From assembly GCA_000004985.1 (NCBI GenBank), contig GG738911.1: a stretch of 64,000 nt of DNA; one strand, given 5' to 3'. The translations under genes and the position numbers were made by a program. This document shows positions 1,844 to 48,368 of this stretch, piece after piece. The notes under the pieces were generated by a model, which was given only the letters and a program-made list of their open reading frames with translations, ran no database searches and had not been told where the DNA came from. Origin of the DNA: Naegleria gruberi (Eukaryota). Within the stretch, counting starts at the first letter, position 1. Each line of letters starts with the position of its first letter.

Positions 1844-3439
1844 ATGGAATCACCTCTGAAAAAGAAGAAACTCAATCACGCTGCGGAAGAAAAAGAGAAA
1901 AATATTGATTCCGATGATGATGATCAGAATAATGATGAAAATGTAAAAATAATATTATCTAATGATGATGGTTTAATGGAAAGTATTCTATTGAAGAAGA
2001 AACTTGGAGGAAACAAAATTAGAACTCTCAATACAAAGATCACACTCTCCGAGGTTTCTATTGATTGTCTTGCAAATGATGATGTGCAGATTCGAATATG
2101 TCACCAGAAAAAGTTATTGTTTCTTAGTTGTTGCAAAAATATTCACATTTACAATTATGAGGAAGATTTGAAACTTGTTAGGAAAATTAATGTGAAATTT
2201 GATAGTTTTGAAGTCGATAGTGTTGGTGAACACTTGTTTGTAATCTCAATTAGTGGCATGTCAAAATATAGACTTGATGACATGTCAGAATTGTGGACTT
2301 TTAGAGAAAACGTGTATTGTTTTACTATTAGTGAATCCAGAAATGAAATTTTCATTCCCAATAATTTGGAAGTTAACGTTTTGGATATGAATGATGGCTC
2401 AGTCAAGAGGAAAATTCCATTTCAATTAAGCCAAGGTTATTGCGCAGATATTGTCTATGATGAAGAGGAGGAAACCATTTATCTATCAGTTAATGTTGAT
2501 AGTTTTGAAGTTTATGACTTCAAATTATTAATAGTTTCAGAAAAAACTAGAACACAAACTGAACTTGTTTGTGATCAGAGATTTAGCCATCTCTTCTTCT
2601 ATGAAAGATATCTTGTATATATCACAGTAGTGGAAGTAGTCTATCTTTTTGAAAAGAAAACTAATAATTTATTATTAACATTTAAATTGGATAAAATTAG
2701 ATATTACAATTCCTATTTTGATAGATTAACCAATACTTTAATATATCTAAATAGACAGAAAATATGTTTTAAAAAGTTACACATTGAGGAAAATATTATT
2801 GAAACTCCACTCAACAAGGAGATTTGTCTTGCACTTGAGAAATTTGGAGGCAAATTACCATCTTTCATTCCAAAAGTTCAAGTTTTAAACGAATTTGTTA
2901 TTCCAGAATGTTTACAATATCTATGGAGAGTTGAGTTTGAAAATTCAAAGTTTTGGTATATTGAGAAAGAGATTGCAAAATATGTTTCTTTTCGAGATTG
3001 TAACTTTGGATACATTACTGAAAGATGGATGGGAAAAGATGATATTCTCTTAATTGGAGATTGTCCAACAAGTTCAGAATTGGAAAATAACAAGTTTGCC
3101 CTCTGTATCTTTGTAAAGAAAGAGGAAGTTTCCAAGGTATCAAATGGCGACTTTTCAATTTATTTGCGTTACTTTGATGAATCTTCTTATGATTATATTA
3201 TTCAGAGTTTCAAATTTTCAGAATTTGTTTCAAAATTGAGTGTTGCAGAACTTGTAAAATTAGAAGACTTTTCAGAATATTTGATTCATTTTGAAAAGAN
3301 NNNNNNNNNNNNNNNNNNNNNNNNNNNNNNNNNNNNNNNNNNNNNNNNNNNNNNNNNNNNNNNNNNNNTAAGAAAGATTAACAATATACTGTTACAGATG
3401 GTTTGGCATCAAATAAAGAAAAATTGGAATGAAAATTGA
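1844..3439 (+). CDS. member of expanded paralogue family X (N-terminal K-rich NLS-like motif, beta-propeller-like middle, conserved C-terminal alpha region). 3' end interrupted by an assembly gap.
   Basis: MESPLKKKKL N-terminus and VKIIL.D..L...LLKKKLGGNKI, FEVDSVGEHL, LDMNDGS.KRKI, PLNKEICLALEKFGGKLPSFIPKVQ, IPECLQYL and FENSKFWYIEKEIAKY motifs are shared with the ORFs at 14395, 16179, 17911, 42604, 44577 and 46500. The X residues in the track are N bases; the tail after the gap is probably not real. Confidence 0.55.
   Translation: MESPLKKKKLNHAAEEKEKNIDSDDDDQNNDENVKIILSNDDGLMESILLKKKLGGNKIRTLNTKITLSEVSIDCLANDDVQIRICHQKKLLFLSCCKNIHIYNYEEDLKLVRKINVKFDSFEVDSVGEHLFVISISGMSKYRLDDMSELWTFRENVYCFTISESRNEIFIPNNLEVNVLDMNDGSVKRKIPFQLSQGYCADIVYDEEEETIYLSVNVDSFEVYDFKLLIVSEKTRTQTELVCDQRFSHLFFYERYLVYITVVEVVYLFEKKTNNLLLTFKLDKIRYYNSYFDRLTNTLIYLNRQKICFKKLHIEENIIETPLNKEICLALEKFGGKLPSFIPKVQVLNEFVIPECLQYLWRVEFENSKFWYIEKEIAKYVSFRDCNFGYITERWMGKDDILLIGDCPTSSELENNKFALCIFVKKEEVSKVSNGDFSIYLRYFDESSYDYIIQSFKFSEFVSKLSVAELVKLEDFSEYLIHFEKXXXXXXXXXXXXXXXXXXXXXXXXRKINNILLQMVWHQIKKNWNEN
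3300..3368. other. assembly gap (run of N)
   Basis: 69 consecutive n characters. Confidence 0.95.
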
Positions 3440-3577: not shown

Positions 3578-3822
3578 GAGCTGAGAGTCATGTTACTAAC
3601 TTATGCTTCATAATTATGTGTTCTTGGAATAAACTATCATTGTTGCTCCACAAGGCTTTGCATAGGTGTCATATTTAGATATTACTGATGTCAAATTCAT
3701 AGAAACCTTGCTTTCAGTATCAGAAACGCTTTGCAAATTACTAGTTGGAGTTGACACATGAAACTAGAAACTGTAATATTAATGAGAAGATTTGTATGAA
3801 CTTGTTGGTAAATCGGTTGAAG
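3578..3822 (-). repeat. degenerate dispersed copy (~90% identical, small indels) of an internal coding segment of the receptor gene (original at about 33749..34006)
   Basis: Direct comparison of the two stretches, ggagctgag[a/g]gtcatgttactaac...tcatagaaaccttgctttcagtatcagaaacgctttgcaaattactagttggagtt...aatcggttgaag, shows co-linear near-identity over about 250 bp in the same orientation. No ORF is retained, so it is a gene fragment. Confidence 0.7.
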
Positions 3823-3957
3823 AATAACGATCTTACAGTATTAAATATAAATAATACCCAGACAATTAATTGAAAAGGTAAGCTGTATTTAAGGCTTATT
3901 TATTTTTATTTCAAGAACCCCTTACTGACAGAGTTCAGTAAATTTTTATAAGTGTAA

Positions 3958-4075: not shown

Positions 4076-5400
4076 ACAAATATTTATTATTTTGGTTGTC
4101 CTTAAATAGATAAAAAGACTACAACACCACAGGTTCCCAAGTTGTCTCCAACCTCAGTACTGATGCTCGACGATGCTTAACTTCTCAAATCGGACGGGAT
4201 GAGGTGTATTCATCGTGATATGGCCGTAGCCATTCATTTAATGAAAATATGGACCATAAATCTAATATCAAACGTATTGCTAACTTTGGCAATAAAACAA
4301 CATAAGTAGTCAAAAATTCTATCATATCTTTTATACCATCTTAAAGATTTTCAACTATTCTAATTGCATGCACACGGCAATATTCATCATTCAGTGTTAC
4401 TCATTCAATAACAGTAAATAGCACCCAAATGGATACGAATCAAGAAAAACAATCCTACTGTAATGCATGTATTCCGTTACAATAGGTAAAATATCTAATA
4501 TTTCATTCTTGTCATTGTAAAATTAACTGTAATATGATTGTGATCTTGTAAGGTTGTTTTATGGGTAATAATCATGAAAAACTCCACATCTCCTATTATT
4601 GTAACCAACGTTTTATTCTCCCAGTTCCAAATCAAGAACTGTTTTATTAAGTCACTCACTTATTGACATTTAACATGTAGCAATTCAAAGAACACCAAAC
4701 TCAATTCCAATTCCTCTCCATTCCATTCCTTAATAACACACCTCAATAATTTCAATTTTTTATTGTAAATCTTTGTAAACTATTGAAAGATTCTCAAGCA
4801 AGGAATCTTTCCATACTGTAATTCAAAAGTAAAAACGCGAAACAGCAAAATTTCCAAAAGCAACAACGCGAATCACTATAAACAAGTTCACTCCCTTTGT
4901 TGAATGTGTTAAAATCGCCATATTTCAAAGACCCTGGACCAAAATCAAAGGATGGTTTGTTTGGCAATTCAACCAAACGCGAAAATCATTGCATGAAATG
5001 GAATCACCTTAATGGAGAGGAGTGTAGTGATTTACTGTTGAAATTTTTGGTAATTTTTCACATGAATTGAAGGGAATGAAAGGAGTGCAGTTGAAGAATT
5101 GAAGAAAAAGCCAACAATTTTCCAAGAAATGTCAATCAGTAAAAACAATCCTTACTTTTTCAGACACCTGTGCTACCAAATTTCATTTTCACTTTTCCTT
5201 TTCATCAAGTAATTGTGCTTTCCCGCTCCAGAAACCCAATCACACCTTCAAGCCAATCCATCCTGAAAATCTAAAGAGGAAACGGAAGAAGAACTCCGAT
5301 AAAAAAATGGGCGCTAAAAATAATGAGCCTTCACTTTGCTTGTCAAGACCTCATAAAAAACATCTTTTGATTTTTTTTAGCCTTTAAAAAAAATACAAAT

Positions 5401-14270: not shown

Positions 14271-14343
14271 TGCTGACGGACGGGATCGAACCGGCGACCA
14301 ATGGCTTATTAGACCAACGCTCTACCGACTGAGCTACGCCAGC
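14271..14343 (-). tRNA. tRNA-Ile (anticodon AAU)
   Basis: Reverse complement GCTGGCGTAGCTCAGTCGGTAGAGCGTTGGTCTAATAAGCCATTGGTCGCCGGTTCGATCCCGTCCGTCAGCA. Acceptor stem GCTGGCG/CGTCAGC has seven pairs. D arm GCTC..GAGC. Anticodon loop CTAATAA. T arm GGTTCGATCC. 73 nt, no intron. Lies 66 bp upstream of the F-box/LRR ATG. Confidence 0.85.
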
Positions 14344-14394: not shown

Positions 14395-16092
14395 TTAGAT
14401 TTTTATAAGGCAATGCTCACTACATAATTCAGATAAAGTAATTAAATCAATCTTTTTGAAATCCATATTATCAAAAGTAATTGTTGAATTTTGGAAATGT
14501 TTCATTAAAGCTTCATATGTTATAGTTCTTCGATTAATAATGATTTGATAATGTTCCAATAGAATAGATTGATCAATTTCTCTCGTTTCTGGATTGATAA
14601 TTCTTTTCAATAATAATTCTTCATAAATCATTTCAAAGTTAATCAAATATTCGTATCTATCATTCACTTTGATATGCTCTGCAACTCTCAATTTAGAAAT
14701 AAACTCTGAGAGGTTAAAACTCTTAATTATATATTCATCTTTTGATTCGTTTTGATAGCGTAAATAAATTGAAAAATCATCATTTGAAATTTCTGATTTC
14801 TTGACAACCAGACAGTTTGAAAACTTGCCTTGATCTGAACCTCCAATCAAGAATGCCCCATTTTCTTCCATCCATGTAATATCAAGTGAACAGTCACATC
14901 CAAAAGAAAAGTATTTTGCAATGTTTTCATCAATATACCAAAATTTTGAATTTTCAAACTTAACACTCAATAGATATTGTAAACATTCTGGAATAACATA
15001 TTCGTTATCATTTTGAACCTTTGGAATGAAAGATGGTAATTTGCCTCCCAATTTCTCAAGTGCAAGACAAATCTCCTTGTTGAGTGGTCTTTCAATGATA
15101 TTTTCCTCAATGTCGTTGTGAAATGTTGTTAAATTAAATGTATTATGATAATATTGTTGAAATACATTAGTTGAGTTATCAAAATATGAAATACCACTAT
15201 ATCCAAGGCCATCTTTAAATTTAAACAATAAATCATTTGTTTTCTTATCATAAACAAATACTTCTCCAAATGTTGTTGAACAAATAAAGTAGTTTCGATA
15301 GGACAGAAAGAAACCAACTTGGTCCTCAACCCAGATACTAGACCTTGTGTCATTTTTTTCATCAATAATTACAACAATATGCTCTGAAGTATAAGTACAG
15401 TTCTCATCAATAATGGACACATAAACATGGTCCTCTTTTTCATTATAGGTAATGAACGATAACAAAGGTGAGTGGTAGAAGCTATATTCTCTTAGAATTG
15501 TCCTTTTGGTTGATCCATCATTCATATCCAAAATACTAACTTTCAAGTCAGTAGAGTTACACCAAGCAGTGTACAATTCATTCTTAGATTCACAAATTGT
15601 AAAACAACAACTATTATACCCAGACAATGAAACAGTCCACACTAATGATAAATCATCGAGTCTCTTTTTCCTCAATTCCTCATCACTAAATTCATACAAA
15701 TGCTCTCCAACACTGTCCACTTCAAAATAGTTATTACTATTTAGTTTAATTTTTCGAATCAAACTCGAACTCTTCATATCATAAATACGAATATGTTTTT
15801 CACCTCTACAATAAAGAAGAAGCCACTCTTTATGTGGACACACTCTTACTCGCTCCAAAGATTGATAGGGAGATAAATCTGGTACAGTAAACTCCGTAAG
15901 ACAAGTCCTTGTTTGAGAAATTAATTTAATTTTGTTTCCTCCTAGTTGTTTCTTCAACATTAAACTTTCCAACCTATCATCAAATATTATTTTTACATTT
16001 TCGTCATTGTGATGATTATTTTCTTCCTTCACAATGCTGCCAAAGCAGACATCATCATGGGGAATCTTTTTCTTCTTGCGAAGTGGTTCCAT
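14395..16092 (-). CDS. family X paralogue
   Basis: MEPLRKKKKIP start (first ATG at 16092; the track start at 16155 is upstream). Shares VKIIFDD..ESLMLKKQLGGNKIKL, FEVDSVGEHLY, LDMNDGSTKRTI, ERPLNKEICLALEKLGGKLPSFIPKVQ, IPECLQYLLSVKFENSKFWYI, DFSIYLRY, EFISKLRVAEH and YLINFEMIYEELL with the other members. Confidence 0.6.
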   Translation of the reverse strand: MEPLRKKKKIPHDDVCFGSIVKEENNHHNDENVKIIFDDRLESLMLKKQLGGNKIKLISQTRTCLTEFTVPDLSPYQSLERVRVCPHKEWLLLYCRGEKHIRIYDMKSSSLIRKIKLNSNNYFEVDSVGEHLYEFSDEELRKKRLDDLSLVWTVSLSGYNSCCFTICESKNELYTAWCNSTDLKVSILDMNDGSTKRTILREYSFYHSPLLSFITYNEKEDHVYVSIIDENCTYTSEHIVVIIDEKNDTRSSIWVEDQVGFFLSYRNYFICSTTFGEVFVYDKKTNDLLFKFKDGLGYSGISYFDNSTNVFQQYYHNTFNLTTFHNDIEENIIERPLNKEICLALEKLGGKLPSFIPKVQNDNEYVIPECLQYLLSVKFENSKFWYIDENIAKYFSFGCDCSLDITWMEENGAFLIGGSDQGKFSNCLVVKKSEISNDDFSIYLRYQNESKDEYIIKSFNLSEFISKLRVAEHIKVNDRYEYLINFEMIYEELLLKRIINPETREIDQSILLEHYQIIINRRTITYEALMKHFQNSTITFDNMDFKKIDLITLSELCSEHCLIKI

Positions 16093-16178
16093 TTTTTTTG
16101 GTTGTTGTTGCAGTTTAAAATTGAAAAGCGCGGGAATATTCAATATGAGGAACAATTTTTAAAAAAAAAATAAAAAAA

Positions 16179-17867
16179 ATGGAATCACCACTGAAGAAAA
16201 CCAAATTCAATCACCAGAAGTCTTGTGTTGTTCATCATGGGGAGGAGGAAGAGGCTGATCATCATACAATCATTTTATCGGATCATCTTTCGAATAATTT
16301 TTTAAAGCAACAATTAAGAGGAAAGACAATACGAAACTTTCAATTCCATATTTACTCTGAAAATAATGATTTGATGAATCCACAGTTTGATGAATTTGGG
16401 AGGGAAAATATATTTAGTGCTACGAGATGTGCGGAATTGGATTTATCATTTGTTGCTTTTCGAAATTTTAAAACTAATTCGATTGCAATATTCGAAAGGA
16501 ATCAATTATTGAAGATAATTAAAATGAATGATGATTTTGAATCATTTCAAGTGGATAGTACGGGAGAATTTGCTTTCTTATTGAATTCAAAAAGTGAATT
16601 GATTAAGGTGAAACTAGACGAATCTGCAAAATCTATTTGGAAAGTAAATGGTGTTTTACAATTTTGTTTGTGTAATTCAAAGAGTGAAATATACACAGTA
16701 AGCAAGTACGATAACAAAAATGTGACAGTAAGAATTTGGGAAGATTCTAATGGAATACTGAAGCGTGAATTAGTAATTAAAGATTGCAAAAAGTTGTCTG
16801 ATTTTGATTTGATAAATATGAAACGAGATGATAAGAAACGTTTACTATTTCTATTCAGAAATGATCTGAGAACAAGGTTAAACAGTAAGATCGTTTTGTA
16901 TGATGAGATAAGAAATCAGTCAATTAAGATGAAAATGACTGAAATATCTATGGTAGATTTCACAAAAGAAGGCTACTTGCTTTTTTATTCAGGCGTAGAT
17001 CTAGCATATATTTATGATGATAAGAGTGGACTTGTACTTTTGGAAATGTTATTGCCCTGTAGTTTCAATTCAGTTTCCTATTTTGAAACAATTTCGAATA
17101 CTCTCTGCCGCTTTGGTATTTGTCCAGTAGAAAAGGATAGGATTGAAATTTTATCAAATGTTGTTAACATGCCACTTAAAGAAGAAACATGCCAATCTTT
17201 ACAGAGGCTAGGATGCCAACTACCAATAAGCATTCAAGTCGATTTTGAATGGCTTGGCTTTTTCATTCCTGATTATTTACAAATGTTACTAACAACCAAC
17301 TATGGAAATATGCAATTTTGGTATCAAGATGATGAGCTAGCTGCACGATTCAAATTTATCACTACTCCACATTCTCTCAATTTTGAAGATCATGTCGTTA
17401 TAAGTGATTCAGATGATAACTTGACTGTGTCTGTAAAGAAATCAGACCTTTCAATTCATAATAATTTCAGTGGTGATTTTCCCATTTACTTGTCTTTTAT
17501 TGATTCTAAAAAGGGAATTTCGATCAAGAGTTTTACATTATCAGAATTTATTCCAAAATTGCTAATTGTAGAATGTGGTAAAAAAGTATTATCATTTACT
17601 ATTTGCTTTGCAAAGATATTTGAAGAATTATTAGAGATTGGAATAATCGATTCGAAAAGAAACATTAATCCTACCACTCTATTAGAAAGATATCAAGAAA
17701 TAATTTGTAGTTCCATGCAGGAAAATATGAATATTAATTTATTGGGAGAATACTTTGGACATTCAACTATTCGTCTTGACGAAAGAATATACAAAAAGAT
17801 GGATCTGATTGTATTGGCCAAATATTGTCCAAAGTATTTAAAATTATTTGGACAAATCATTTTTTGA
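16179..17867 (+). CDS. family X paralogue, head-to-head with 14395..16092
   Basis: MESPLKKTKF start at ATG 16179, only about 86 bp from the divergent paralogue's ATG. Conserved PLKEETCQSLQRLGCQLP, YLQMLLTTNYGNMQFWYQDDE, FPIYLSF and SEFIPKLLIVE blocks; more diverged than the others. Confidence 0.6.
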   Translation: MESPLKKTKFNHQKSCVVHHGEEEEADHHTIILSDHLSNNFLKQQLRGKTIRNFQFHIYSENNDLMNPQFDEFGRENIFSATRCAELDLSFVAFRNFKTNSIAIFERNQLLKIIKMNDDFESFQVDSTGEFAFLLNSKSELIKVKLDESAKSIWKVNGVLQFCLCNSKSEIYTVSKYDNKNVTVRIWEDSNGILKRELVIKDCKKLSDFDLINMKRDDKKRLLFLFRNDLRTRLNSKIVLYDEIRNQSIKMKMTEISMVDFTKEGYLLFYSGVDLAYIYDDKSGLVLLEMLLPCSFNSVSYFETISNTLCRFGICPVEKDRIEILSNVVNMPLKEETCQSLQRLGCQLPISIQVDFEWLGFFIPDYLQMLLTTNYGNMQFWYQDDELAARFKFITTPHSLNFEDHVVISDSDDNLTVSVKKSDLSIHNNFSGDFPIYLSFIDSKKGISIKSFTLSEFIPKLLIVECGKKVLSFTICFAKIFEELLEIGIIDSKRNINPTTLLERYQEIICSSMQENMNINLLGEYFGHSTIRLDERIYKKMDLIVLAKYCPKYLKLFGQIIF

Positions 17868-17910
17868 AAGAGTACATCAAAATTATTTATTTCCTTAATT
17901 TCCTAAAAAA

Positions 17911-19740
17911 ATGCCATCACAATACAATCAAAATCCCTTTGCTAATTATCCTAATGCTATCTTGGGGACTAGGGAAAATAATTCTCACGACGAAGAGCGC
18001 GTTAAATTAATACTTCTTGAAGGTCTTGATACAAATACTAAATTAATAAGGGAAAATAATTCATTAAGCAGAAAACTTTCTGAAGGACTGGAAGCGAAAC
18101 TTACAGGAAAGAAGGTAAGAAAGGTTAAAGGAATGTTTATCAACTCGGAAAGGTTGGTTGAATATGTAAACAAACAGGTATTGTGTATGGATACATGTCA
18201 TGCTTTGAATTTATTATTTGTTGGGTTGTATAGTTTGGGATTTTATATGATTTCCATATTCGAAAATGGTGTATTGAAGAGAACGATGGAAATTTCTGAT
18301 CGTTTTGTTTCGTTCCAAGTAGATGAACAAGCAGAGTTTATTTATCTATTAAGCAATGGTAATTGTGGAAGGTTAACGAAAATGAAACTTGACGATACTT
18401 CAATAGTTTGGCATTTTAATAGCATTAACAGTTTTTGCTTGGCTGGTAATGAGATTTATGTTGGATTCTCATGCAAAACATACTTGACAGTCCATATATT
18501 AGATACTATCGATGGTTCACAAAAAAAGCAATTCACAGTTGATAAGGGAATGAATACATTCATCTTGAAACAAATGAAATATTATGAAAGAAAGCTCTAT
18601 CTTCTATTTCACAAATGTGGAACAAGGAATATTGTTCATCACTCAAATCTTTTTATGATTGTTGATTTAATAACCGAAAAGACACAACCGATTAAGCTAG
18701 AGAAGACACTTTCGACTATTGGAATTACTACAGGAGGTCTTTTGATTTTTTTTGGTTTATGGGATGTAGACGTGTATGATATTAATAGCAGGTTGCTTCT
18801 TGGTATTAATTATTCTCAATTTCAGTCGAAATGTTTTTTGTCTGCTTGTGCCAATCACTTTGATAAACATTCGAATAGATACTACATTCATCAATTTGAA
18901 GAGCAAAAGAATCAAAAAGATGAAATTATTCAAATTAGTTCAAGCATAGTATCTGAACAATTGGAAATAAGTATGAATGTTGTAGATGCGCCACTGAATT
19001 CTAAAATATGGCAAGCAATTGAAAAATTGGGAGGTCAATTACCACAATATATTCCACAAGATAAGATTAGTTACAGAAATTTAAACTTTGAAGATTCACA
19101 ATATTCCATCTATCCAGACTGTTTAGAATATTTATTAAGGGTTGATTTTGGACAAGTTGGCTTTTGGTATAAAGATAAAGAAATTACCAAGAATTTCACA
19201 TTTGAAAAGGAAGCTTATGTAGATTGGGTACGAAAGAAAAGAGATAATGAACTTTTTTTTGCTACACCATTCTTTCACAATCAAGGAATGTTTCTTTATG
19301 TAAAGAAAGAAGAGCTTTCTAATAATGATGATTTTCCAGTACATCTCCTCTATCAGACTAACGATGAAAATAACCAACATGAAGAAAAGGTAATGAGTTT
19401 GCTTGAATTCCTTTCAAGATTGAGTCTTGCTGAACATGTCATTTTAAATACTGGTTTCGAATATTTCATCAACTTTGAAATGATTTGTAAGGAATTATTG
19501 GAAAAGAACATAATTGATCCAGAAACAAGACAATTAGATATCGAATATTTAATCAAAAATTTTGAGGGAGCTAATATGTATTTGAAAATTTATTTCAACA
19601 ATTCAAAATTCCGTTTTGGAAATTCCATTTATGAAAAGCTTTTTTTGATTCTAACAGCAAACGATTGTTCAAAAAATTGCCTTATTGAAATGGAATCAGA
19701 AGTTGATTCAGATGATGATGATGAATATTGTATTTTGTAA
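17911..19740 (+). CDS. family X paralogue (divergent N-terminus)
   Basis: Conserved ERVKLILLEGLDTN, FQVDEQAEF, LDTIDGSQKKQF, APLNSKIWQAIEKLGGQLPQYIPQ, YPDCLEYLLRVDFGQVGFWYKDKEI, FPVHLLYQ, EFLSRLSLAEHV and YFINFEMICKELLEKNIIDPETR blocks. Confidence 0.6.
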   Translation: MPSQYNQNPFANYPNAILGTRENNSHDEERVKLILLEGLDTNTKLIRENNSLSRKLSEGLEAKLTGKKVRKVKGMFINSERLVEYVNKQVLCMDTCHALNLLFVGLYSLGFYMISIFENGVLKRTMEISDRFVSFQVDEQAEFIYLLSNGNCGRLTKMKLDDTSIVWHFNSINSFCLAGNEIYVGFSCKTYLTVHILDTIDGSQKKQFTVDKGMNTFILKQMKYYERKLYLLFHKCGTRNIVHHSNLFMIVDLITEKTQPIKLEKTLSTIGITTGGLLIFFGLWDVDVYDINSRLLLGINYSQFQSKCFLSACANHFDKHSNRYYIHQFEEQKNQKDEIIQISSSIVSEQLEISMNVVDAPLNSKIWQAIEKLGGQLPQYIPQDKISYRNLNFEDSQYSIYPDCLEYLLRVDFGQVGFWYKDKEITKNFTFEKEAYVDWVRKKRDNELFFATPFFHNQGMFLYVKKEELSNNDDFPVHLLYQTNDENNQHEEKVMSLLEFLSRLSLAEHVILNTGFEYFINFEMICKELLEKNIIDPETRQLDIEYLIKNFEGANMYLKIYFNNSKFRFGNSIYEKLFLILTANDCSKNCLIEMESEVDSDDDDEYCIL

Positions 19741-31877: not shown

Positions 31878-34800
31878 TTAAATACCATAGACAACGTTGG
31901 CCTTCTCAATGATTTGCATTTGAACATCTCTCACTGCCTTGAAATTAACATAATCTGGTGTGAAAACAAATCGAGAGAAGGTATCTCCCAAATTCATAAC
32001 CACCTGTCTCATCATTAATTCAAAACAATCCTTGACCATGCTATTTTCAATTCCAAGTTTTGATAGGGAATTTAAATCCAATAGCTCACAATTTGATTCG
32101 TCCAATTTCTTACATTTTTCATAGAGTTGAATGAATGCAGTTCTACTCTTTGATGGAATGTTAACTTCCATTTCTGCTCCAGTTTTGATGTACTTTTGGT
32201 AGATTCGGTCAGCAAAGAAGACTAATCCTCCAAGATTTTCACCAGATACCACATCTGTACTTGCTTTAATGTCAGAGAAGAGGAATAAATTTTCAGAGCT
32301 GAATTCCTTTTCACAAAAGTTTGCAAATAATTCATATCCTTCCTCAGATTCCAAAGTATTGTAAAGTTCTTGATTCATAATTTCATCGTTTTGCTTCTTT
32401 TGTTCTTCCTTTTTGGTTCTACGTTGTCTGAACTTGTAGACAAGAGCAACAATGAGTGCATAACCACCAAATACTAAAATATAGGAAATGACATAGAGTA
32501 CTTCAAAGATGAAGGAAATTGAATCAAATGTCAAGGCAAGTTTGAACATGGCCAAACTCTCAAATCTGTAAGACAAGCTGCTCAATCCAATAACTTGATT
32601 CAAGATGAGTAAAATGAAGGAAATAATATAAATGAACATTTCCATTCTGAAATAGAGAGGTCCATCCATTGAGGTAAACCAATGGAATGCTGTTAATAAA
32701 ATATTCTTATTGAGCTTCTTCTTTTCATTGATGTTTTCAGCATTATCAAGACTGAAAGTACTGGTAGGTTGTGAAAAGTTTACAGCTCTTCTTCTATTCT
32801 TCTTTTGATCAACTTCTTTCTTTGATGAGAGAATCATGTCAAGGATGGCGACAGCTGTAATAATCACACCAAATGTCAAAATACAAACTGTATAAGAAAC
32901 TGAAACAATGTAGGTATACTGTAATGAATCTAGAACTCCAGTTCTTCTCAAAATGACCCAAATAACCCAATAGACAACATTGACAGCAGCAAATATACCA
33001 ATCAATGAATAGAATAACACTTGTGAGGTTGCATACTTCAATGCTTTCAAAATTGTTGTACTTTGAGCTTGCGTTCTATTATCAGAGAGTTTCTTGTAGA
33101 GTAGTTTCATGAATTGGAATCTAAAAACTTGCATGACGTAACAGAAAATGGCTGTTAAATTGAGGGTGTTTACAATAATCATGACAATATTTGCAATGAT
33201 ATTGGCAGCAGCATCTCCACTTTCCCACATTTGACTATTTGCAGAATTCAATTGATCCACTAGAACAGATCTTTGTACAATATAAATCAATGTACATTCC
33301 ACAATTAATGCTATCAATCCAACATAAGGAGTAAGCAATCTAGAGCTCACAGGTTGAGACTTTCTCAAAACAATCAATCCAATCAAAATTGCACTTGCTG
33401 CAATCAAATAAATAATACCAAATGATATTTGGGCATAGTATAATGATGAAACTTGATCCTTGAGTTGAACGGTAAATGTTGTTGTCTTGGATTCAAGGAA
33501 AGTTGTAAACATGGTTGTGTGAGAACAAGCACATTCAATTGAGTTAGATGAAACTCTATGCAATGAACATCCATAACTGCTCCACATTTTGAGTTTCTCA
33601 TCCCAATACTTGCAATGATACGTACTGTTGGTAACAGTCGAATTGGAGATTATTGAGCTTGGAATAGTGGCAGCATTGAATGAAAGAATAAGAGGTGAAT
33701 CTAAATTATCCAAAACCAAGACATCTGTCTTTTTCATGAATTTGAAATCAGTAACAGAGGAGCTGAGGGTCATGTTACTAACTGAAGCATCATAATTTGT
33801 GTTCTTTGAATAAACTATCATTGTTGCTCCACAAGTCATTGAATAGGTGCCATATTTGGACATCACTGATGTCAAATTCATAGAAACCTTGCTTTCAGTA
33901 TCAGAAACGCTTTGCAAATTACTAGTTGGAGTTGGCACATTGAAACTAGAAACTGTAATATTAATGAGAGAAGATTTGTATGAACTTGTTGGTAAATCGG
34001 TTGAAGTAGAACTAACAACAGTTGGGATAGTTCCATAATAAATCAGAACAGTGACAAGACTAGCTGTCGATTTGGTTTTTTCAGAATCATATGAAGTAGA
34101 GAAGCAGTTTGAAATAACTTGAATTGTTTTGGAGATATCTGCACTGGAGAGGGATGATTTCACATAGCCATACAGAGCAAGTTCACTCAAATAAATGTCT
34201 GTCAAATTTGAAACAAATGAATCCACTTTGTTGATGACTAGACTGACGGTATCAGCTGTTAGTGTTTCATTATTGGATGTTAGTGTTTCCAAGCTTGATA
34301 AAGATGATGAAGGGTTCTTTGGATCAATTACTACATTAGAAATGAGGGCAGAGACCAATGATGACGATGCTGAACTTGTTGTAAAGGTTTGATCTACAGA
34401 GGCACCTAATAGCGACTCTCCACTCAAAGATTTTACAACTTCAATGTATTGCTCTTGAGTTCCATTAAATGGAGAGACTGTTACATTTGCTGATGCTTCA
34501 GTTTCCACATTTCCGAGGGCGTCCTTGACAAAGACAACCAGTGAGATTGTTTCTGTTGTTTCTAAAATACTTCTTGATTTGGTGGAAGAGCTTTCCGACC
34601 TAATGTAAGGTAAATAAGATGAGAAGGTAGTGTTGAGACTGTATTCAGTCAATCTAACAGACTCTGCCTTTGATTTATCATAATAACCAAATGCATATTT
34701 GAGTGGCAATAGTTCAGGTGATGTTGCAACCCATTCAGAAACCTGAATTGTAAACTTGTCATTCATTGAAATACCAGAGATTGGAGAAACGCTAACAAGA

Positions 34801-37800
34801 TTGGAAACACGTGTTGGAGGACTTGCAGAGGAGATAATTTGAATTTGAACAGAAGAGCTAATGTTTTGCTGCTTGCTATTGATAACTGTGAATGTGAACA
34901 AGACAGTCTCATTCAAATAGTTGGATGGAATGCTTGCTTGAATTGGAACTGATGGAGAAAATGATAATAGGTTAGTATTATCATATTTGGCCAAGACTGA
35001 ACCTGACCTTTTGTAAGAGAATACTCCTGCACTAACTTTCCATTCATAGGAAACCAAAGTTGAGCAATTTTTTCCACAACCTAAAAAGTATCTAATAGTA
35101 GTTGTGTTCAGAGTGATACTGTTAATAACAGTTGAAATGGTTTGATCTTGAGTACCTGAAACTAGAACAGATGGTAAACCAAAGCTTCCCAAAGTTGGCT
35201 CATTCAATTCATACTTGACTACTAATTTGAATTGTTGCAGGTTGGATTTTCTGCTTTGGAATGGTTGAATATTAGCAATGGATGCATTTGCAATGAAAGT
35301 GTAATTGCCTGCTTGAGTAACATCAGTTAATGTAGAGTTGATTAACAAACGATTGGATTCCACATAGAAAACCACATTTTGTCCATCACATTCAACACAT
35401 GACCAGGTGTAGGAAATATTTGGACTTTGGCTTAATACTTGATCTATTAATTGAATTTCCACACTGACAGTCTTGTTATCAAATTCCAAATAGACAACCT
35501 CTTCATATTTTGTAATGTTAATTTGGAATGGACTAATATTCACTGAACAATCCTTATTGGTGAATCCTTCAACACAAGAACAGTAATTTGGTGATACACA
35601 TTGTCCCTTTCCTGAGCAAACACTCGATTCGTTGAACAAGGTACCAAAGCAATTGTGCAATTCACATGTTTGGCCATAATATCCTGGTTGACATGTGCAG
35701 TTATCTGGAACAAAGCATGAACCATGACTTGAGCAAACGTTGGTATCATTAAAAAGAATTCCAAAGCAATTATGATTTGAACAATCAAATGAAAAATATC
35801 CTTCTTGGCATGAACAGTTATTTGGACTCAGACAAGTTCCATGTTTGAAACAAACATTTGAAGAATTCTTATGAACTCCAAAGCAATCATGTTCAGAACA
35901 TTCAGGTCCATAATACCCAGCTTCACAGAAGCAATTATTTGGAGATAAACATTGTCCATGAGTGGAACAAACATTAGAATTGTTAAATAAAGTGCCATAG
36001 CATTGGTGAGCTTCACACTGATATCCATAATATCCTGGTTGACATGTACAATTATTTGGAACTGGACATGAACCATGGCCACTACAAACATTCATTGTAT
36101 CATTGAATAAATGGCCATAACATTCATGGTTGGAACAATCAAATGAAAAATAACCGGTCTGACATGAACAATTATTTGGACTCTAACAAGTTCCATGCTG
36201 GAAGCACACATTCGAAGAATTCTTATGAACTCCAAAGCAATCATGTTCAGAACATTCAGCTCCATAATATCCAGCTTCACAGAAGCAATTATTTGGAGAT
36301 AAACATTGTCCATGAGTGGAACAAACACTTGAACTATTGAATAGAGTACCATAACAGTTGTGCAATTCACATGTTTGCCCATAATATCCAGCTTGACATG
36401 TGCAGATATTTGGTGAGTCACATGAACCGTGAGATGAGCAAGTACTACTATTTAAATGTTCCACTCCAAAGCAATTGTACAATCCACAATCAGATCCATA
36501 GAAAGGAACTAAACAACTACAATTATTATAGGCTGTACATGATCCTCGTCCTGAACAGACAGTTGAGGAATTCCTAGAAGCACCATAACAATCATAAATT
36601 TCACAATTCTATTTTCATCACATGTACAATTATTGAATGAATGACATTGACCGTGTGAGGAACAAATATTTGGATTGTTTGAGAGAACTCCATTACAAAT
36701 ATTAATTTCACAGAATTTGCCAGTATGTTGCTCATCACACTGACAAGTATCGAATGCTGTACAATTACCAAATCCAGTACACACATTTGTTTCATTTTTC
36801 AATATTCCACTACATTCGAATAATTCACAATCTTCTCCATAATAACCCTCTTGACAGGTACAATTTTCTGGTGAAGAACATGATCCATGTCCTGAACAAA
36901 CCATTGAAGAATTATTGATAATTCCATTACACATATAATTTTCACAATTATCTCCAAAGTATAACTCTGGACAAGTGCAATTATTCTTTGAATCACATGA
37001 TCCTACTCGAGAGCATACATTTGGTTGATCGAATCTAATTCCACCACAGTCATAGTACTGGCATTCAGATCCATATCTTCCTGCTTGACAATTACTACAT
37101 GTATTTGGTGAAGAACATGTTCCAAATCCACTGCAAACATTTGGATCACTTGGTGCAAGGCCATTACAATAATACAATTCACAAAATGTTCCTGAATATC
37201 CTGTTTGACATGAGCAAGTATTTGGACCAGTACATGTTCCACGACCATTGCAAACAGTACCAACTTGAGAATAGAGAATACTATTGCAATAGTAATTTGA
37301 ACACGTACTTCCTGAATATCCAGAATAGCATGAGCAACTATCTCGAGCATTACATGATCCATGTCCACTACAAGCACTCGATCCATATAATCCATAACAG
37401 AGATATTCATTACACTGAGAACCAGACCAAGTGTAGGTCAGTGAATTTCCAAAATACTGATTGGCTGTCCAGCAAACTTCCTTCTGGGCACCATAGAGTA
37501 CCAAATTACCATCTGATATTATCATTGATGATGTTGATGTTGATGGAATAAACAACTCACTCCATCATAACAATTCAATAGAAACTTACCTGATTGCATG
37601 ACTAATCTGAAAGGGGCTGTACCAGAGGTGCATGCAGAAGAAATTGTCTTTAAAACACCTCCCTGGTCTCGTATCTCAAGAGTGCCATCCAATGACAATA
37701 CTAAATTATACGGAGCTGTTCCTTGTCCATTAGTATCAGATGCCCAATAGGCAACCAATCCAGGTTTATAAAGCACCAAATTGCCATCCACTTGTTGTTT

Positions 37801-42603: not shown

Positions 42604-44352
42604 TTATTCTAAATATCTAAATAAAAAATCCAATTCCAATAAACCTCTTCCAAAGCACATAATAATCAAGTCAGCAATCAAATATTTCTTCTTTCCAATT
42701 TCCACAACTTCGTCTCTAATATCATTAACAATAAGACTCAGAATAGATTCGCCTTCTTTTCTCATAGTGACAACTCTATACGATTCCACTAGCATTTGAG
42801 GATCAAGCTCTAAATTTTCCTTATCCATCAGACCTTTCTCCAACAATTGGCTGACGATAGAGTTTGCATTGAATGGCAACCATTTTTTGATTACTTCAAA
42901 AGATGAGGCAGTATGCCCTAAGGAGGTATGTTCAAATTTCAATCGGCATTCAAGGGAGCTTAGGAAATCAGAGAACTTGCACTTGAGAGAGCGATCAGGT
43001 TTTTGGAGCATTACGTGAACCGGAAAGTCAAATGCCAATTGACCATTCTTGCTCAATTCTGAGGGATCCAACAAGATATGGAAATCACCAAAAGAAAAAT
43101 ACTCTGCATATCTGCTTGCGCCCAAAGGTGGTTCCAATTGGAACAAACAATCTTGAGAATCATTATTGTTGAGAGCTTCTTTCAATGAGGAATTCATCTC
43201 GAATTTAGAAAAACTCTTCCATGCAATATGAGACAAATAATTGACCGTAATTGATTCGTACTCTCTTCTCTTGATAACATTGGGAAATCTAGCACCAAGG
43301 TCCTTCAATTGAGAATAAACCTTACGTGTTAGAGGTAGGTCAATTGAATGAGTTTCTAATACCAAGGAACAAACATAAATATCGTCTGAAGATATGTACA
43401 TAGTCTTTGAAACCTTGTCAAGAAACACATCTCCTGCTTTAAAGCAAATATCTCCAATCCAGATTTTCTTGATAATTGCATGAGTTGTCTTATCATAAAG
43501 AAACATATAGGTACTATCCCTCAAAACAAGATAATGATCCAATTCACCAACAAAACGCAACCAACACTGAAATTTGACTCGTTGTTCACAATTTGAGAAG
43601 TTTCTACCAGTGAATAATCTGAGCTCTGATGTTTTGTCCTCAGTTCTAGTATTAATCCACAATGCATCTCTATTAGAATCATAGGTTATAGAATATGTGT
43701 TTTCTAACCTCAAAGTATCAACAAAGTATTTGTGTTGTAAAGTACTTCCATCCAAAACATGAATCTGTCTATCATTCGAAAGAATGACTTCATTTCTGGG
43801 AAGTGAATATTCCAACAAATCAGCTTCCAGATTTGTAATTCCCAAATTCCTTCTTTGCAAAACGGTGAATTTCCCATTGGGATCGATTTTAGCCTTCACC
43901 AAGTCCTACACGATTAAATCATCTGGACTTTCGTCTGGAGGATTCTCCTGAACAATACACATTGGATAGAATGCAATAAGATCACCCAAATCACACCGAT
44001 GAATAAATTTCTTACTGTCCATGTCGAAGACATGCAGAAAACAATTCGAGTTTGGTCTATCACTACTTTCGGAAACTATTATCAATCGTTTCTTCATGTG
44101 GATTCTAAGGTCGAGGGTTGTCTCGATTTCTATTTGAAAAGTGTTCAGGTGAGATAGAAAAGCCTTCTCCAAGCATAGAAGAGTTGGAGTGGAAAGTTTC
44201 TTCTCCAACCATAAATGTGTGAAATGTTTCTCCAAGATTCCATCAATGAAAACTAAACGGACTGGTGCGTGAGAGTCAAGGCTTTTTTCAATGTTTCTGT
44301 ATTTAGCTTTAGGTTCGTAATCATTCACCTCAAAGATATGCTTTGTTTTCAT
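42604..44352 (-). pseudogene. family X paralogue with an in-frame TAG (43906..43908) splitting it into two same-frame ORFs; either a pseudogene or an assembly error
   Basis: ORFs 43906..44352 and 42604..43902 are in the same frame, separated only by TAG (...PDDLIV*DLVKAKIDPNGKF...). ATG at 44352. Conserved family blocks (YEPKAKY, VRLVFIDGILEKHF...KLSTPTLLCLE, LEPPLGAS and others) are present in both halves. Confidence 0.5.
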
Positions 44353-44576: not shown

Positions 44577-46391
44577 CTAATCCTCGTAAATGTCATTGTG
44601 GAAACTAAATACTTCTTTTTCGATAGCCAATGCCAATAAATCCATTAATAAATATTCCTTATTATTAAAGATCACCACATTCTTCCTGAACTTTTTCAAA
44701 ACCTTTAGCAAGTCTCCAAAATTAGGTGACAATGTAATATTTCTATAAACGTCCAATAACTTTCCAGAATCGAGCTCAAGAGTTTGTGGATCAATTAATG
44801 AATTATTATTTAAAGATTTGTACATTTCTTGCAAGTTAAATTTGATCTCTTTTGTATAATAATCATTTTCAAGACCCACACTAACGCATGGTTTTAAAGT
44901 GTCCAGAAAATCTGATAATTTACATTTGACAGTGAACTCTTGTGGTACACAAAGATACACTGGGAAATCTGTCAAATTCTTTCCGTTTTGTTGCAAATCT
45001 GATTGCAATACTGCTAAATGGTAATCATCGGGACTAATTGAGTTTGCACCAATAATGTGAACTTGATCAATTGGCAAATAATCGGATAAATACTCTAAAT
45101 CTGGTTTGATATTTTGCAATGCAATAGTAAAATCTATAGATTTTAGCTCGTCAACTACTTGCTTAAGGTCACAATCCACAAACTCGGAAATTACTGAAAC
45201 ATCCTTAAACCCCTTAAATTCTACAAGTTGTTTAAATCCAAAGTTCATATTTGCTAGAAAGCTCACAACGTTTGGCACATTATTTTCCCTCACAATCACT
45301 TGGGGTAACTTTGCTCCAAGTCTTTCCAATTGCAAACATATTTCCTCACCCAAAGGTTTATCTATAGAGTAAGTGTCTAATTTCAATTCTAATTGATACA
45401 CTTGCTCCTTACCACATGAAAATATGGTTTTAGAAACTCTATCGTATGCGTAAGCCTCCATCAGTACATCATCTCCAATTTTTTTGATAACCATGTGACT
45501 GGATTTGTCAATTAGATACAGACCGTCCTCATATCTAAGGACATGAAACTTATCAAGCTCCATTTCAAACATTAATTCCACCATCCCAATACGATCATCT
45601 TGTTCTACAGAAAATAATATTTCACTCTTTGCAAAGGTTGGACCATAATATTTTCTCACATAATGCTCCGAACTATGGCCATTACCAAACACTAACAAAT
45701 AATCAGAATGGGGATAATAACGAACAACATATTGTGCGTCATCATCAATAAATGTATACTTGAACACCAAGCTATCTCCATCAAATACTAGAATTTTTCC
45801 AAAGTTCACAACCATTAACTCATTTCTAGGTCCAATAAATTCCAAATTTGCACAAGTAAAGCTATCTGCATCCATTACTGGTTCTACTTCTTTCATAATT
45901 GGGAACTTCTGATCTGGATCAAGTAGAATTTTCATCAAACAATAATCTTGCGAAATAGTATACAAGATTTCTTTCCCATCACCATTTTCTACAATGTGCA
46001 TTGCTATCACATTTCCATGGAAATGATTAATATCATATAGAACATTTCCACTCTCTAAACAAACAATAAGAATTGAAGCCTTGTTGTTGGCGGCAAGTAG
46101 CCACCTTTTGGTGGGATGTATTGTTATGGATGGTATGCCATAGTCTTCTTCCGATAATTTAAAGGTTTTAAGAGTGATGAGACTAGTCTCTTCCAAACAA
46201 GTTATTGTTGGAGTGTGGAGTTTCTCCCGAAGCATTGAATTCGTATAATGATTCTCCACTCCATCAAGAAATACCAATCTTGTGAGATTTTCAGAGTCAT
46301 CATTCTCTTCATCATGAAGGCTTTCAATTTTCTTCTTTTTTAATTTTGGTTCGTGTTCGCTGATAGTTTCTTCAAGAAGCCTTGATTTCAT
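44577..46391 (-). CDS. family X paralogue
   Basis: Probable start MKSRLLEETISEHEPKLKKKKIESL, matching the MKS...EPKLKKKKIE start of the neighbouring paralogue. Conserved RLVFLDGVENHY...KLHTPTITCLEE, PLGEEICLQLERLGAKLPQVIV, YLLMDLLALA and other blocks. Confidence 0.6.
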   Translation of the reverse strand: MKSRLLEETISEHEPKLKKKKIESLHDEENDDSENLTRLVFLDGVENHYTNSMLREKLHTPTITCLEETSLITLKTFKLSEEDYGIPSITIHPTKRWLLAANNKASILIVCLESGNVLYDINHFHGNVIAMHIVENGDGKEILYTISQDYCLMKILLDPDQKFPIMKEVEPVMDADSFTCANLEFIGPRNELMVVNFGKILVFDGDSLVFKYTFIDDDAQYVVRYYPHSDYLLVFGNGHSSEHYVRKYYGPTFAKSEILFSVEQDDRIGMVELMFEMELDKFHVLRYEDGLYLIDKSSHMVIKKIGDDVLMEAYAYDRVSKTIFSCGKEQVYQLELKLDTYSIDKPLGEEICLQLERLGAKLPQVIVRENNVPNVVSFLANMNFGFKQLVEFKGFKDVSVISEFVDCDLKQVVDELKSIDFTIALQNIKPDLEYLSDYLPIDQVHIIGANSISPDDYHLAVLQSDLQQNGKNLTDFPVYLCVPQEFTVKCKLSDFLDTLKPCVSVGLENDYYTKEIKFNLQEMYKSLNNNSLIDPQTLELDSGKLLDVYRNITLSPNFGDLLKVLKKFRKNVVIFNNKEYLLMDLLALAIEKEVFSFHNDIYED

Positions 46392-46499: not shown

Positions 46500-48368
46500 C
46501 TATTCATCATTCTCAGAGTCATAAAAAGTTTCAGTTTGGAATTGTATCAATTCTCTTTTTCCACTAGCTTGTGCCATGACTAATAAATCTACCAATAAAT
46601 ATTCCGTCTTGTTGATTGTTACAATATGTTCCTTGAGTTCTTGATTAACCTGGAGCAAAGTACTAAACTGAGGTTTAGTTGCTACATTTCTGTAAGATTT
46701 TAATAATATGGTAGGGTTGAGCTCTAAAGAAATTTGAGAAATTAATGAATTATTCTTTAAAGCTTCGTACACTTCTTGCAACTTGAACTTGAACTCTTTG
46801 GTATCGTCATCCCTTTTAAGTTTCACACTAATGCATGGTTTTAGAGTGCCAAGGAAATCTGATAATTTACATTTAAATATATTCTTTTCTCGAATAACTA
46901 AGATTGGAAAATCTGTTAAATACTGTCCATTTTGATGCAAATCTGATAGTAATACTCCTATACAATACTTATCGCACCGAACTGAGTGACCACCAATAAG
47001 AAACACTTCGTCGTTTGGAAATTTGGTTGGAAAAAGGCCCTTTAAATCTTCCTGTACAATTGTTTTAAAACTAAAAGAGAAATCATAATGTACACCTCTA
47101 ACCTTGTCAAGTCTAACAGGCTTGTTTTCAATTATTTCATAATACTCAGAAATTAGTGATTGGTTCGCAACCCCTTCAAATTGAAGTTCAGCGAACGGCT
47201 TTGGTTCCGACCTCATTTGTTTCAAAAAGCTCACTGCATTTGGTGTATTGCTTTCCTTAACAATTACTCGAGGTAAATTTAATCCAAGTTTTTCCAATTT
47301 TAAACAAACATCCTCTTCCAAAGGTTTATCAATAGAGTAAGTGTCTAATTGTAATTCTAATTGATAGACTTTCCTCTCCCTAGTATATCCAAATATTGTT
47401 TTTGAAGCTCTATCGTAAGAATAGTTTTCTATCAGCAAATCAGTCTCAATTTTTTGGAGAAGTAAATGGTTTGATTTTTCGATAAGAAACAAGTCGTCTT
47501 CTACTCTCATTACGTAAAACTTATCAAGCTCCATTTCGAACAGTAATTCCGCAAGCCCAATACTATCATCCAGGTCAACGTACATTACCATTTCACTTTC
47601 TGAAAAGTTTGGTCCATAGTATTTCCTTAACACATGTTCCGGGTAATTATTAGAAAATACGAATAATTGATCATGAATTGGATTATAATGAGTGTAGTAT
47701 GTTCGATACAATTCACTTTCACTTGCAAACTTCGTCTTCACGAAAAATTCACCGTCAAATACTAATAATTGGTTTGTAAAACCCACAAATAACTCATTCC
47801 TAGATTCAATAAATTTCAAATCTGTAATATCACCAAACTGTAAGAATGATCTATGGTTCAAAATTGGTAAATCCCTCTCTGTATCAAGTTTGATTTTTAG
47901 TACTTCTCTATGGCTATACAAGAAGACAATATCATTATCCCCATGCTCACTCTCCACAATACACATTCCATAAACATCATTATCAATTTCTAATCTAAAA
48001 CTGTGCAATGTTACTCCACTCTCCAAACTGATAATTTTAAAACCAATATGATCAGAATCATCTTTTAAACAAGTAACAACAAGCAACCATTGCTTTTTTT
48101 GATGTATTTGAATGCATGATATTCCATCCGATATTTCAAATGTTCTACGAACAACAAGTTTAGCCCCCTCCAAACAAGTCATCGTGGATGGATTGCAAAG
48201 TTTCTTACAAAGCAATGAATTCATATAATGTTTCTCAATTCCATCAAGAAACACCAATCGGGTGCGATCGTCATCATTATTTAGATGATCTTCAATCTTC
48301 TTCTTTTTTAATTTTGGTTCATACTCGTATTGACCATCATTCATTTCCTCATCATTGTGTGATTTCAT
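46500..48368 (-). CDS. family X paralogue
   Basis: MKSHNDEEMNDGQYEYEPKLKKKKIEDH start. Strong co-linear similarity to 44577..46391 (for example VFDGE, RKYYGPNFSESE, ELLFEMELDKFYVMR, YQLELQLDTYSIDKPLEEDVCLKLEKLG, FKCKLSDFLGTLKPC). Confidence 0.6.
   Translation of the reverse strand: MKSHNDEEMNDGQYEYEPKLKKKKIEDHLNNDDDRTRLVFLDGIEKHYMNSLLCKKLCNPSTMTCLEGAKLVVRRTFEISDGISCIQIHQKKQWLLVVTCLKDDSDHIGFKIISLESGVTLHSFRLEIDNDVYGMCIVESEHGDNDIVFLYSHREVLKIKLDTERDLPILNHRSFLQFGDITDLKFIESRNELFVGFTNQLLVFDGEFFVKTKFASESELYRTYYTHYNPIHDQLFVFSNNYPEHVLRKYYGPNFSESEMVMYVDLDDSIGLAELLFEMELDKFYVMRVEDDLFLIEKSNHLLLQKIETDLLIENYSYDRASKTIFGYTRERKVYQLELQLDTYSIDKPLEEDVCLKLEKLGLNLPRVIVKESNTPNAVSFLKQMRSEPKPFAELQFEGVANQSLISEYYEIIENKPVRLDKVRGVHYDFSFSFKTIVQEDLKGLFPTKFPNDEVFLIGGHSVRCDKYCIGVLLSDLHQNGQYLTDFPILVIREKNIFKCKLSDFLGTLKPCISVKLKRDDDTKEFKFKLQEVYEALKNNSLISQISLELNPTILLKSYRNVATKPQFSTLLQVNQELKEHIVTINKTEYLLVDLLVMAQASGKRELIQFQTETFYDSENDE

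Follow-up and report, generated by a model that had tools for sequence, protein, structure and literature searches.

The SUKH superfamily, founded on the structures 3FFV, 3D5P, 2PAG, 2PRV and 2ICG, is a versatile protein-binding scaffold that serves in bacterial toxin immunity, in host-factor binding by herpesvirus US22 proteins and, in eukaryotes, as an adaptor for ubiquitination and polyglutamylation (PMC3113570). Its core has about four helices plus six strands, with a hairpin made of strands 1 and 2 and a four-stranded meander made of strands 3 to 6, and the cleft between hairpin and meander is the binding site for diverse partner proteins, such as a toxin, SecY or a substrate, in bacteria, herpesviruses and eukaryotes alike (PMC3113570). 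Arrays of SUKH genes go along with conflict both in bacteria and in betaherpesviruses, and the 2011 study of the superfamily reported no lineage-specific expansions of the conserved eukaryotic versions PGs2 and FBXO3 (PMC3113570). The eukaryotes that received bacterial immunity domains, among them SUKH, are reported to be mainly fungi and amoeboid forms, and Naegleria is listed for SUKH (PMC3482391). Here we analyzed a stretch of 64,000 nucleotides from Naegleria gruberi (assembly GCA_000004985.1, contig GG738911.1; hereafter the window), part of a 261,328-bp scaffold, which carries seven genes of one family, m1 to m7. Their products are predicted to couple a beta-propeller to a C-terminal domain of SUKH-like topology. 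Propellers of the WD40/YVTN/PQQ type are typically protein-interaction platforms. What is new here is the architecture of propeller, SUKH-like domain and tail, expanded in a eukaryote.

A Naegleria-restricted multigene family

The seven open reading frames (ORFs) can be aligned over their whole length and are collinear from end to end, which bears out the original prediction, made from the letters of the window, of a single family with exactly seven members in three clusters (Table 1). A family hidden Markov model (HMM), trained on m1-m7 themselves, found these seven loci only in the six-frame translation of the window, with no extra fragment. All the motifs by which the family had been recognized (VKII..D...LLKKKLGGNKI, FEVDSVGEHL, LDMNDGS.KR, PLNKEICLALEKLGGKLPSFIPK, DFSIYLRY and IIDPETR) are present. 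Each gene starts at an ATG directly preceded by a run of A; this ATG marks the first position of the plus-strand genes in Table 1 and the last position of the minus-strand genes. The program-made list let m2, m5 and m6 begin at TTG codons, which are not real eukaryotic starts and were rejected in favor of these ATGs. The translation of m2 (14398-16092, minus strand) is 100% identical to an N. gruberi 'predicted protein', the label that all annotated family members carry. The GenBank models of m3 and m4 begin at internal methionines, while the full ORFs reach the ATGs after the A-run, and the N-terminal extension of the full m3 ORF carries the conserved N-terminal motif. Both deposited models appear to be N-terminally truncated. 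In m1, no tail-like coding sequence was detectable downstream of the assembly gap that cuts the ORF.

None of the models in Pfam, NCBIfam or PHROG matches any member (22 members were scanned against Pfam and NCBIfam), and neither the N-terminus nor the SUKH-like domain nor the tail of the family consensus returned anything from Pfam, NCBIfam or PHROGs. An exhaustive search with the family HMM of 1.84 billion (1.84e9) representative proteins, at a cut-off of E <= 1e-3, gave 39 matches. About 25 of them are family members; the others cover the propeller region only and include generic propeller proteins. N. gruberi has at least 14 loci, with paralogues on at least six scaffolds besides that of the window (P0007, P0009, P0010, P0011, P0012 together with P0013, equivalent to P0041, P0042 and the fragment P0017). 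N. lovaniensis contributes one distant protein, P0025, and the remaining relatives are found on short metagenome contigs of 37-38% G+C. Contig L002 of JGI metagenome 3300002220 holds the tail of one family gene (108-491) followed by a complete second one (832-2565); thus, tandem arrays of the family also exist outside N. gruberi. On this contig, the family genes adjoin the gene of a 725-aa protein that contains ankyrin repeats and whose N-terminus is F-box-like. Neither the 1.84e9 proteins nor IMG/VR or PHROGs yielded a viral or bacterial relative, and pattern-based locus scans of IMG/VR and JGI metagenomes yielded zero relatives.

In a neighbor-joining tree, computed without support values, the N. 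gruberi copies fall into subfamily A (m1-m4) and subfamily B (m5-m7), with P0042 belonging to neither. Copies from other scaffolds are interleaved with those of the window, and the N. lovaniensis and environmental proteins lie outside. This topology suggests that duplication, both in tandem and to dispersed sites, expanded the family within the N. gruberi lineage. Amino-acid identity between m1-m7 ranges from 17 to 48% in pairwise comparison. The family is real, unannotated, multigene and restricted to Naegleria, in agreement with its initial description as lineage-specific, expanded and fast-diverging.

Table 1. Genes, encoded domains and other features of the family in the window (residue numbers refer to m2)
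Feature	Position	Strand	Remarks
m1	1844..3298	+	XP_002670803, 477 aa; subfamily A; PLKKKK NLS-like motif, propeller, SUKH-like domain
m1 arm of m1/m2 block	2781..2995	+	covers start of SUKH-like domain
Assembly gap, 69 N	3300..3368		truncates m1 ORF at its C-terminal end
m2	14395..16092	-	XP_002670856, NAEGRDRAFT_74123, 565 aa + stop; reference for both structure models
Alpha/beta tail, residues 473-565	14398..14676	-	~95 residues, conserved; pLDDT 84-96
SUKH-like alpha+beta domain, residues 330-472	14677..15105	-	two helices, beta-hairpin, four-strand meander, C-terminal helix
Beta-propeller, residues 79-329	15106..15858	-	23 predicted strands
Basic patch LRKKKK, residues 4-9	16066..16083	-	fits classical NLS pattern K-K/R-x-K/R
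m2/m3 spacer	16093..16178		AT-rich; 86 bp between divergent start codons
m3	16179..17867	+	562-aa ORF; XP_002670805 (447 aa) lacks conserved N-terminus
m4	17911..19740	+	609-aa ORF, 43 bp after m3; XP_002670806 (535 aa) shorter at N-terminus
m5	42604..44352	-	interrupted subfamily B copy; XP_002670862 covers last 265 aa only
In-frame TAG of m5	43903..43905	-	m5 otherwise collinear with paralogues
m6	44577..46391	-	XP_002670863, NAEGRDRAFT_53271, 604 aa; subfamily B
m7	46500..48368	-	XP_002670864, NAEGRDRAFT_74137, 622 aa; subfamily B; tandem with m6
NLS, nuclear localization signal; pLDDT, predicted local distance difference test score.

Domain architecture of the encoded proteins

A full-length AlphaFold2 (AF2) model of m2 was obtained from an alignment of 8 sequences, with a mean pLDDT of 71. 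Residues 79-320 were modeled confidently (pLDDT about 80-90) as an all-beta region of 23 strands. A Foldseek search of the PDB with this model returned more than 1,500 propeller matches, WDR5, COPI and an archaeal YVTN propeller among them; E values were about 1e-10 to 1e-11 for the best and ranged from 2.6e-11 to 1e-9 among the leading ones. The beta-propeller that had been proposed for the middle region is borne out by these matches, and the strand count suggests that it probably has six four-stranded blades. At the sequence level, the family consensus matched more than 15 propeller families of Pfam, all below their thresholds. Neither the members nor the consensus reached the Pfam threshold for the WD40 repeat, and profile searches of PDB sequences gave only non-significant propeller matches and one chance match. 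Conservation across m1-m7 is lowest in the propeller, with a mean pairwise identity of 21%, and highest in the SUKH-like domain, with 32%.

The C-terminal part, previously described as an alpha region, is alpha+beta in the AF2 model and is made up of the SUKH-like domain and the alpha/beta tail. A separate model of the C-terminal part contains helices at 10-18, 40-46 and 132-137, a hairpin of strands 53-59 and 62-75, and a meander of strands 84-89, 98-102, 112-119 and 124-131. This arrangement corresponds to the SUKH core fold, with only three clear helices. When the model was compared with 48,164 chains, the top 12 matches included the five founding SUKH structures, Knr4, FBXO3, an Rhs immunity protein and DUF1851. 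The individual scores were 5.4 for the Smi1/Knr4-family structure 3D5P and for the Rhs immunity protein 8BD1_B, which is annotated SMI1/KNR4, 5.0 for 2PAG and FBXO3, 4.8 for the DUF1851 type VI secretion immunity protein, 4.4 for YobK (2PRV), 4.2 for yeast Knr4 and 3.9 for 2ICG. The model thus points to a C-terminal domain with SUKH (Syd/US22/Knr4) topology. Because the sequence link is not significant, we refer to the domain as SUKH-like and do not claim membership of the superfamily as proven.

The boundaries of the SUKH-like domain are supported by relatives with partial architectures. Two metagenome proteins contain the SUKH-like unit without a propeller, P0018 behind a K/E-rich region and P0022 as the domain alone, and P0041, from another N. 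gruberi assembly, ends right after the unit and lacks the tail. As their contigs are short, P0018 and P0022 may be incomplete.

Residues 1-66 of m2 were poorly modeled in the full-length structure. The N-terminal motif PLKKKK/EPKLKKKKIE is found in m1, m2, m3, m6 and m7, where the pattern K-K/R-x-K/R lies within the first 25 residues. An NLS-like motif had been claimed for all members; it does fit the monopartite pattern, and the P-x-K-K-x-K patch is kept in 17 of the 22 near-full-length relatives, distant ones included, but it is missing from m4 and m5. The patch most likely acts as a classical nuclear import signal. The segment VKIIL.D...LLKKKLGG.KI, for which a BTB/Skp1-like domain had been considered, is flanked by acidic residues and was modeled as strand-helix-strand with a pLDDT below 50. 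A possible reading of its VKIIL.D strand is a SUMO-interaction motif. With only about 25-30 residues, compared with roughly 95-120 for BTB/Skp1, it is too short for such a domain, and neither the members nor the family consensus matched BTB/Skp1 profiles at E <= 10.

Divergence, gene conversion and genomic surroundings

The synonymous divergence (dS) is 0.8 for the closest pairs, m1/m2 and m6/m7, and saturated for all others. Together with the range of amino-acid identity, these values indicate that m1-m7 are old paralogues; assembly duplicates are ruled out by dS >= 0.8. Either a profile match to a housekeeping family or a finding of assembly duplicates had been named as grounds for dismissing the family, and neither was found. 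For m1/m2 and m6/m7, the ratio of nonsynonymous to synonymous divergence (dN/dS) is about 0.4-0.5. The original prediction set near-identical blocks beside copies of about 25% identity; such a block is real, and identities go down to 17%. The block in question is shared by m1 (2781-2995) and m2 (14899-15113) and is 90% identical over 215 nt. Inside it, codon identity at conserved residues is about 95%, against 50-80% elsewhere in the pair, a pattern suggestive of gene conversion between two inverted copies separated by 12 kb.

The interrupted copy that had been noticed is m5. Across its in-frame stop, m5 reads LIV*DLVKAK, and an intact counterpart from another assembly (P0050, 583 aa, 96.7% identity) reads LIVYFLTTRDLVKAK. 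As P0050 has 15 extra bases at this position, the TAG of m5 marks the junction of a 15-bp deletion and is, on comparison of the two assemblies, a strain- or allele-specific disruption. A location of the TAG inside an intron and a different genetic code were both discarded, since the paralogues are collinear across the stop and the intact allele carries the 15 extra bases. A variant of m7 in the other assembly is 98.1% identical.

The divergent arrangement of m2 and m3 was confirmed. The proposal that their 86-bp spacer is a special shared promoter was not, as nine other ORF-to-ORF spacers in the window measure 85 bp or less; such spacers are typical of this compact genome and this one is unremarkable. 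Long, intron-free ORFs of ordinary eukaryotic types are closely packed in the window, whose G+C content is about 34%. Neighboring ORFs encode kinase, leucine-rich repeat, EGF/RGS, adenylate/guanylate cyclase, PAS, RalGAP-like and glycosyltransferase proteins. The genes of subfamily A have a G+C content of 29-31%, with about 0.25-0.26 at third codon positions (GC3), compared to 35.1 +/- 1.5% G+C in 15 other ORFs; those of subfamily B lie in the normal range. Amino-acid composition, expression level or origin are possible causes of the low G+C of subfamily A.

Further features lie close to the family genes. A 5S rRNA gene (4116-4231, minus strand; Rfam RF00001, 92 bits) is located in an ORF-poor region of 2.6 kb downstream of m1, and a tRNA-Ile gene (anticodon AAT; 14271-14343, minus strand; ARAGORN and Rfam) lies about 50 bp past the stop codon of m2. 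Non-coding DNA downstream of m1 (3617-3828) forms a direct repeat of about 200 bp, 94-96% identical, with 33798-34012, and this second arm is situated inside a large EGF/RGS ORF (31878-36095, minus strand). Duplication of a fragment could explain the repeat, as could a small mobile sequence. At least 12 copies of EGF-like coding units with a period of 117 bp extend over 35579-37380, across the adjacent ORFs 31878-36095 and 36509-37555, possibly two parts of a single gene that an intron or the annotation has divided. Just upstream of cluster 3, the ORF 41490-42443 (plus strand) encodes a lysine/cysteine-rich protein, unmatched in Pfam, with repeated C..K..K motifs and a hydrophobic, signal-like stretch at its N-terminus. 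The other assembly gap of the window (215 N, 56171-56385) falls among overlapping ORFs around the RalGAP-like gene (56099-59875).

An adaptor model, its alternatives and related systems

We favor, with confidence that is about evenly balanced, the reading that these genes form a Naegleria-restricted family of modular, bivalent and probably nuclear adaptor proteins. The basic patch would mediate nuclear entry, the diversified propeller would be the target-recognition surface that captures different ligands, and the more conserved module of SUKH-like domain and tail would dock a common partner or itself sequester a protein. Each protein would then be a bivalent bridge between the ligand of its propeller and the partner of its C-terminal module. 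Because the propeller is variable, the SUKH-like domain conserved and SUKH a known protein-binding scaffold, a bivalent adaptor is the most economical model. The family appears to have grown by tandem and dispersed duplication, accompanied by occasional gene conversion and strain- or allele-specific pseudogenization. Birth-and-death evolution of this sort is typically seen in genes for recognition or conflict, and the tandem arrays, the apparent gene conversion and the allele-specific pseudogene fit a family of this kind. A role in recognition or defense, as suggested at the outset, is a plausible hypothesis to which the SUKH-like fold, the tandem arrays and the strain-specific pseudogene give concrete form.

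Several results weigh against the adaptor model. No partner, toxin-like or ubiquitin-system gene was found among the ORFs beside the clusters, two copies of the window lack the basic motif, positive selection finds no support at dN/dS below 1 and a dS near saturation, and a literature search found no paper naming these genes. The alignments behind the two AF2 models were shallow, with 8 and 11 sequences. For the SUKH-like domain, a Foldseek search of the PDB with the C-terminal model gave nothing significant, nor did it match the tail to any fold, and none of the 22 members, nor the consensus, matched the SUKH models of Pfam/NCBIfam (SMI1_KNR4, SUKH_3-6, Syd). A profile search of PDB sequences gave no SUKH match either. 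SUKH sequences for a direct comparison with hhalign were taken from the PDB by means of a hand-written SUKH-like pseudo-consensus, and from four bacterial loci; the probability was 0.9-2%, obtained with a shallow SUKH profile of 3-6 sequences. The hhalign alignment, though not significant, is collinear, with the elements E..LG..LP, I-G and sF.eFL in the right order. It is possible, if unlikely, that the C-terminal domain merely converges on a SUKH-like topology, in which case a propeller joined to a truly novel domain would make up an ordinary, fast-drifting orphan family with no role in conflict. Convergence has to contend with the high rank of the founding SUKH structures, Knr4, FBXO3, the Rhs immunity protein and DUF1851 among the chains compared, with the identical order of strands and helices and with the collinear sequence signatures.

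By the precedent of the eukaryotic SUKH proteins FBXO3, SKIP16 and PGs2, the family might act in protein modification, for example by ubiquitin, as a set of substrate receptors or adaptors, the propeller binding substrates and the SUKH-like and tail module docking the enzyme. We consider this rather doubtful. Elements of the F-box, SOCS, BTB or DWD type were not found; no member matches the F-box, and the only trace is a sub-threshold match of the family consensus (E 0.0099; 16.2 bits, with a cut-off of 20.5 bits) that falls in the last blade of the propeller. Moreover, conserved eukaryotic SUKH families have not undergone lineage-specific expansion (PMC3113570), unlike the Naegleria family. 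The SUKH-like fold, the diverged paralogues in tandem arrays both in the window and on an environmental contig, and the strain- or allele-specific pseudogene m5 would also suit an amoebal 'polyimmunity' array, whose proteins enter the nucleus and neutralize nucleases or other toxins from bacterial prey, endosymbionts or giant viruses; the published transfer of immunity domains to amoeboid eukaryotes (PMC3482391) and the SUKH arrays known from conflict (PMC3113570) point the same way. Such an array is nevertheless improbable, as the sequence link to bacterial SUKH is not significant, bacterial or viral relatives were not found, dN/dS is about 0.4-0.5 and the SUKH-like module is the conserved part, with diversification lying elsewhere. 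A toxin gene next to the family genes, by which polyimmunity loci are recognized, is absent as well; the cluster neighbors include no toxin or defense gene and carry no toxin-like domain. The more specific proposal of a eukaryotic counterpart of polyimmunity loci, in which the nucleus-targeted propeller-SUKH array of a bacterivorous amoeba would capture and disable nucleases or other injected effectors of bacteria or giant viruses, is more improbable still. Two assembly gaps in the window and the low G+C of subfamily A relative to its neighbors could hint at an assembly artefact, or at copies, spread over the scaffold, of a mobile, viral or selfish element, and a domesticated selfish element had indeed been suggested at the outset. 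This is hardly credible: the copies differ in 52-83% of their amino acids and have dS >= 0.8, terminal repeats are absent, none of the neighboring genes encodes a transposase, an integrase or a capsid protein, no relatives occur in IMG/VR or PHROGs, and the flanking genes are ordinary cellular ones.

The present analysis provides the first domain architecture for these 'predicted protein' genes. If the SUKH assignment is true, the family is a counter-example to the statement that eukaryotic SUKH proteins of the PGs2 and FBXO3 type do not expand, and it adds a new propeller, SUKH and tail architecture. Should the assignment fail, the family would still offer a clean case of birth-and-death evolution in a protist, with tandem duplication, gene conversion and a strain- or allele-specific pseudogene, and would be mostly of local interest. 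Toxin-secreting bacteria and giant viruses are constant encounters for Naegleria, a genus that includes the human pathogen N. fowleri. The family is a candidate for how a free-living amoeba might recognize foreign or variable proteins, and if the polyimmunity reading were true, it would represent a new branch of innate immunity in protists that makes use of a borrowed fold of immunity proteins.

Among described systems, the closest to the propeller are those of the WD40/YVTN/PQQ type, such as WDR5, COPI beta-prime and the archaeal YVTN surface-layer protein 1L0Q, whose fold is like that of residues 79-329 (Foldseek E about 1e-10). The Naegleria family shares with them the periodic motif of a hydrophobic strand followed by a D..G turn. 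Its propeller is shorter, however, with about 250 residues and 23 strands, it probably has six blades instead of seven, and its sequence is unrelated to that of any curated propeller family. The closest to the SUKH-like domain is the SUKH superfamily (Syd/US22/Smi1-Knr4), with YobK and RhsPI as examples of its bacterial polymorphic-toxin immunity proteins and with FBXO3, SKIP16 and PGs2 in eukaryotes. From the F-box/SUKH adaptor FBXO3 (PDB 9KBF), the family differs in having neither an F-box nor an ApaG domain. Whereas FBXO3 is single-copy and conserved, the Naegleria family is multi-copy and rapidly diverging.

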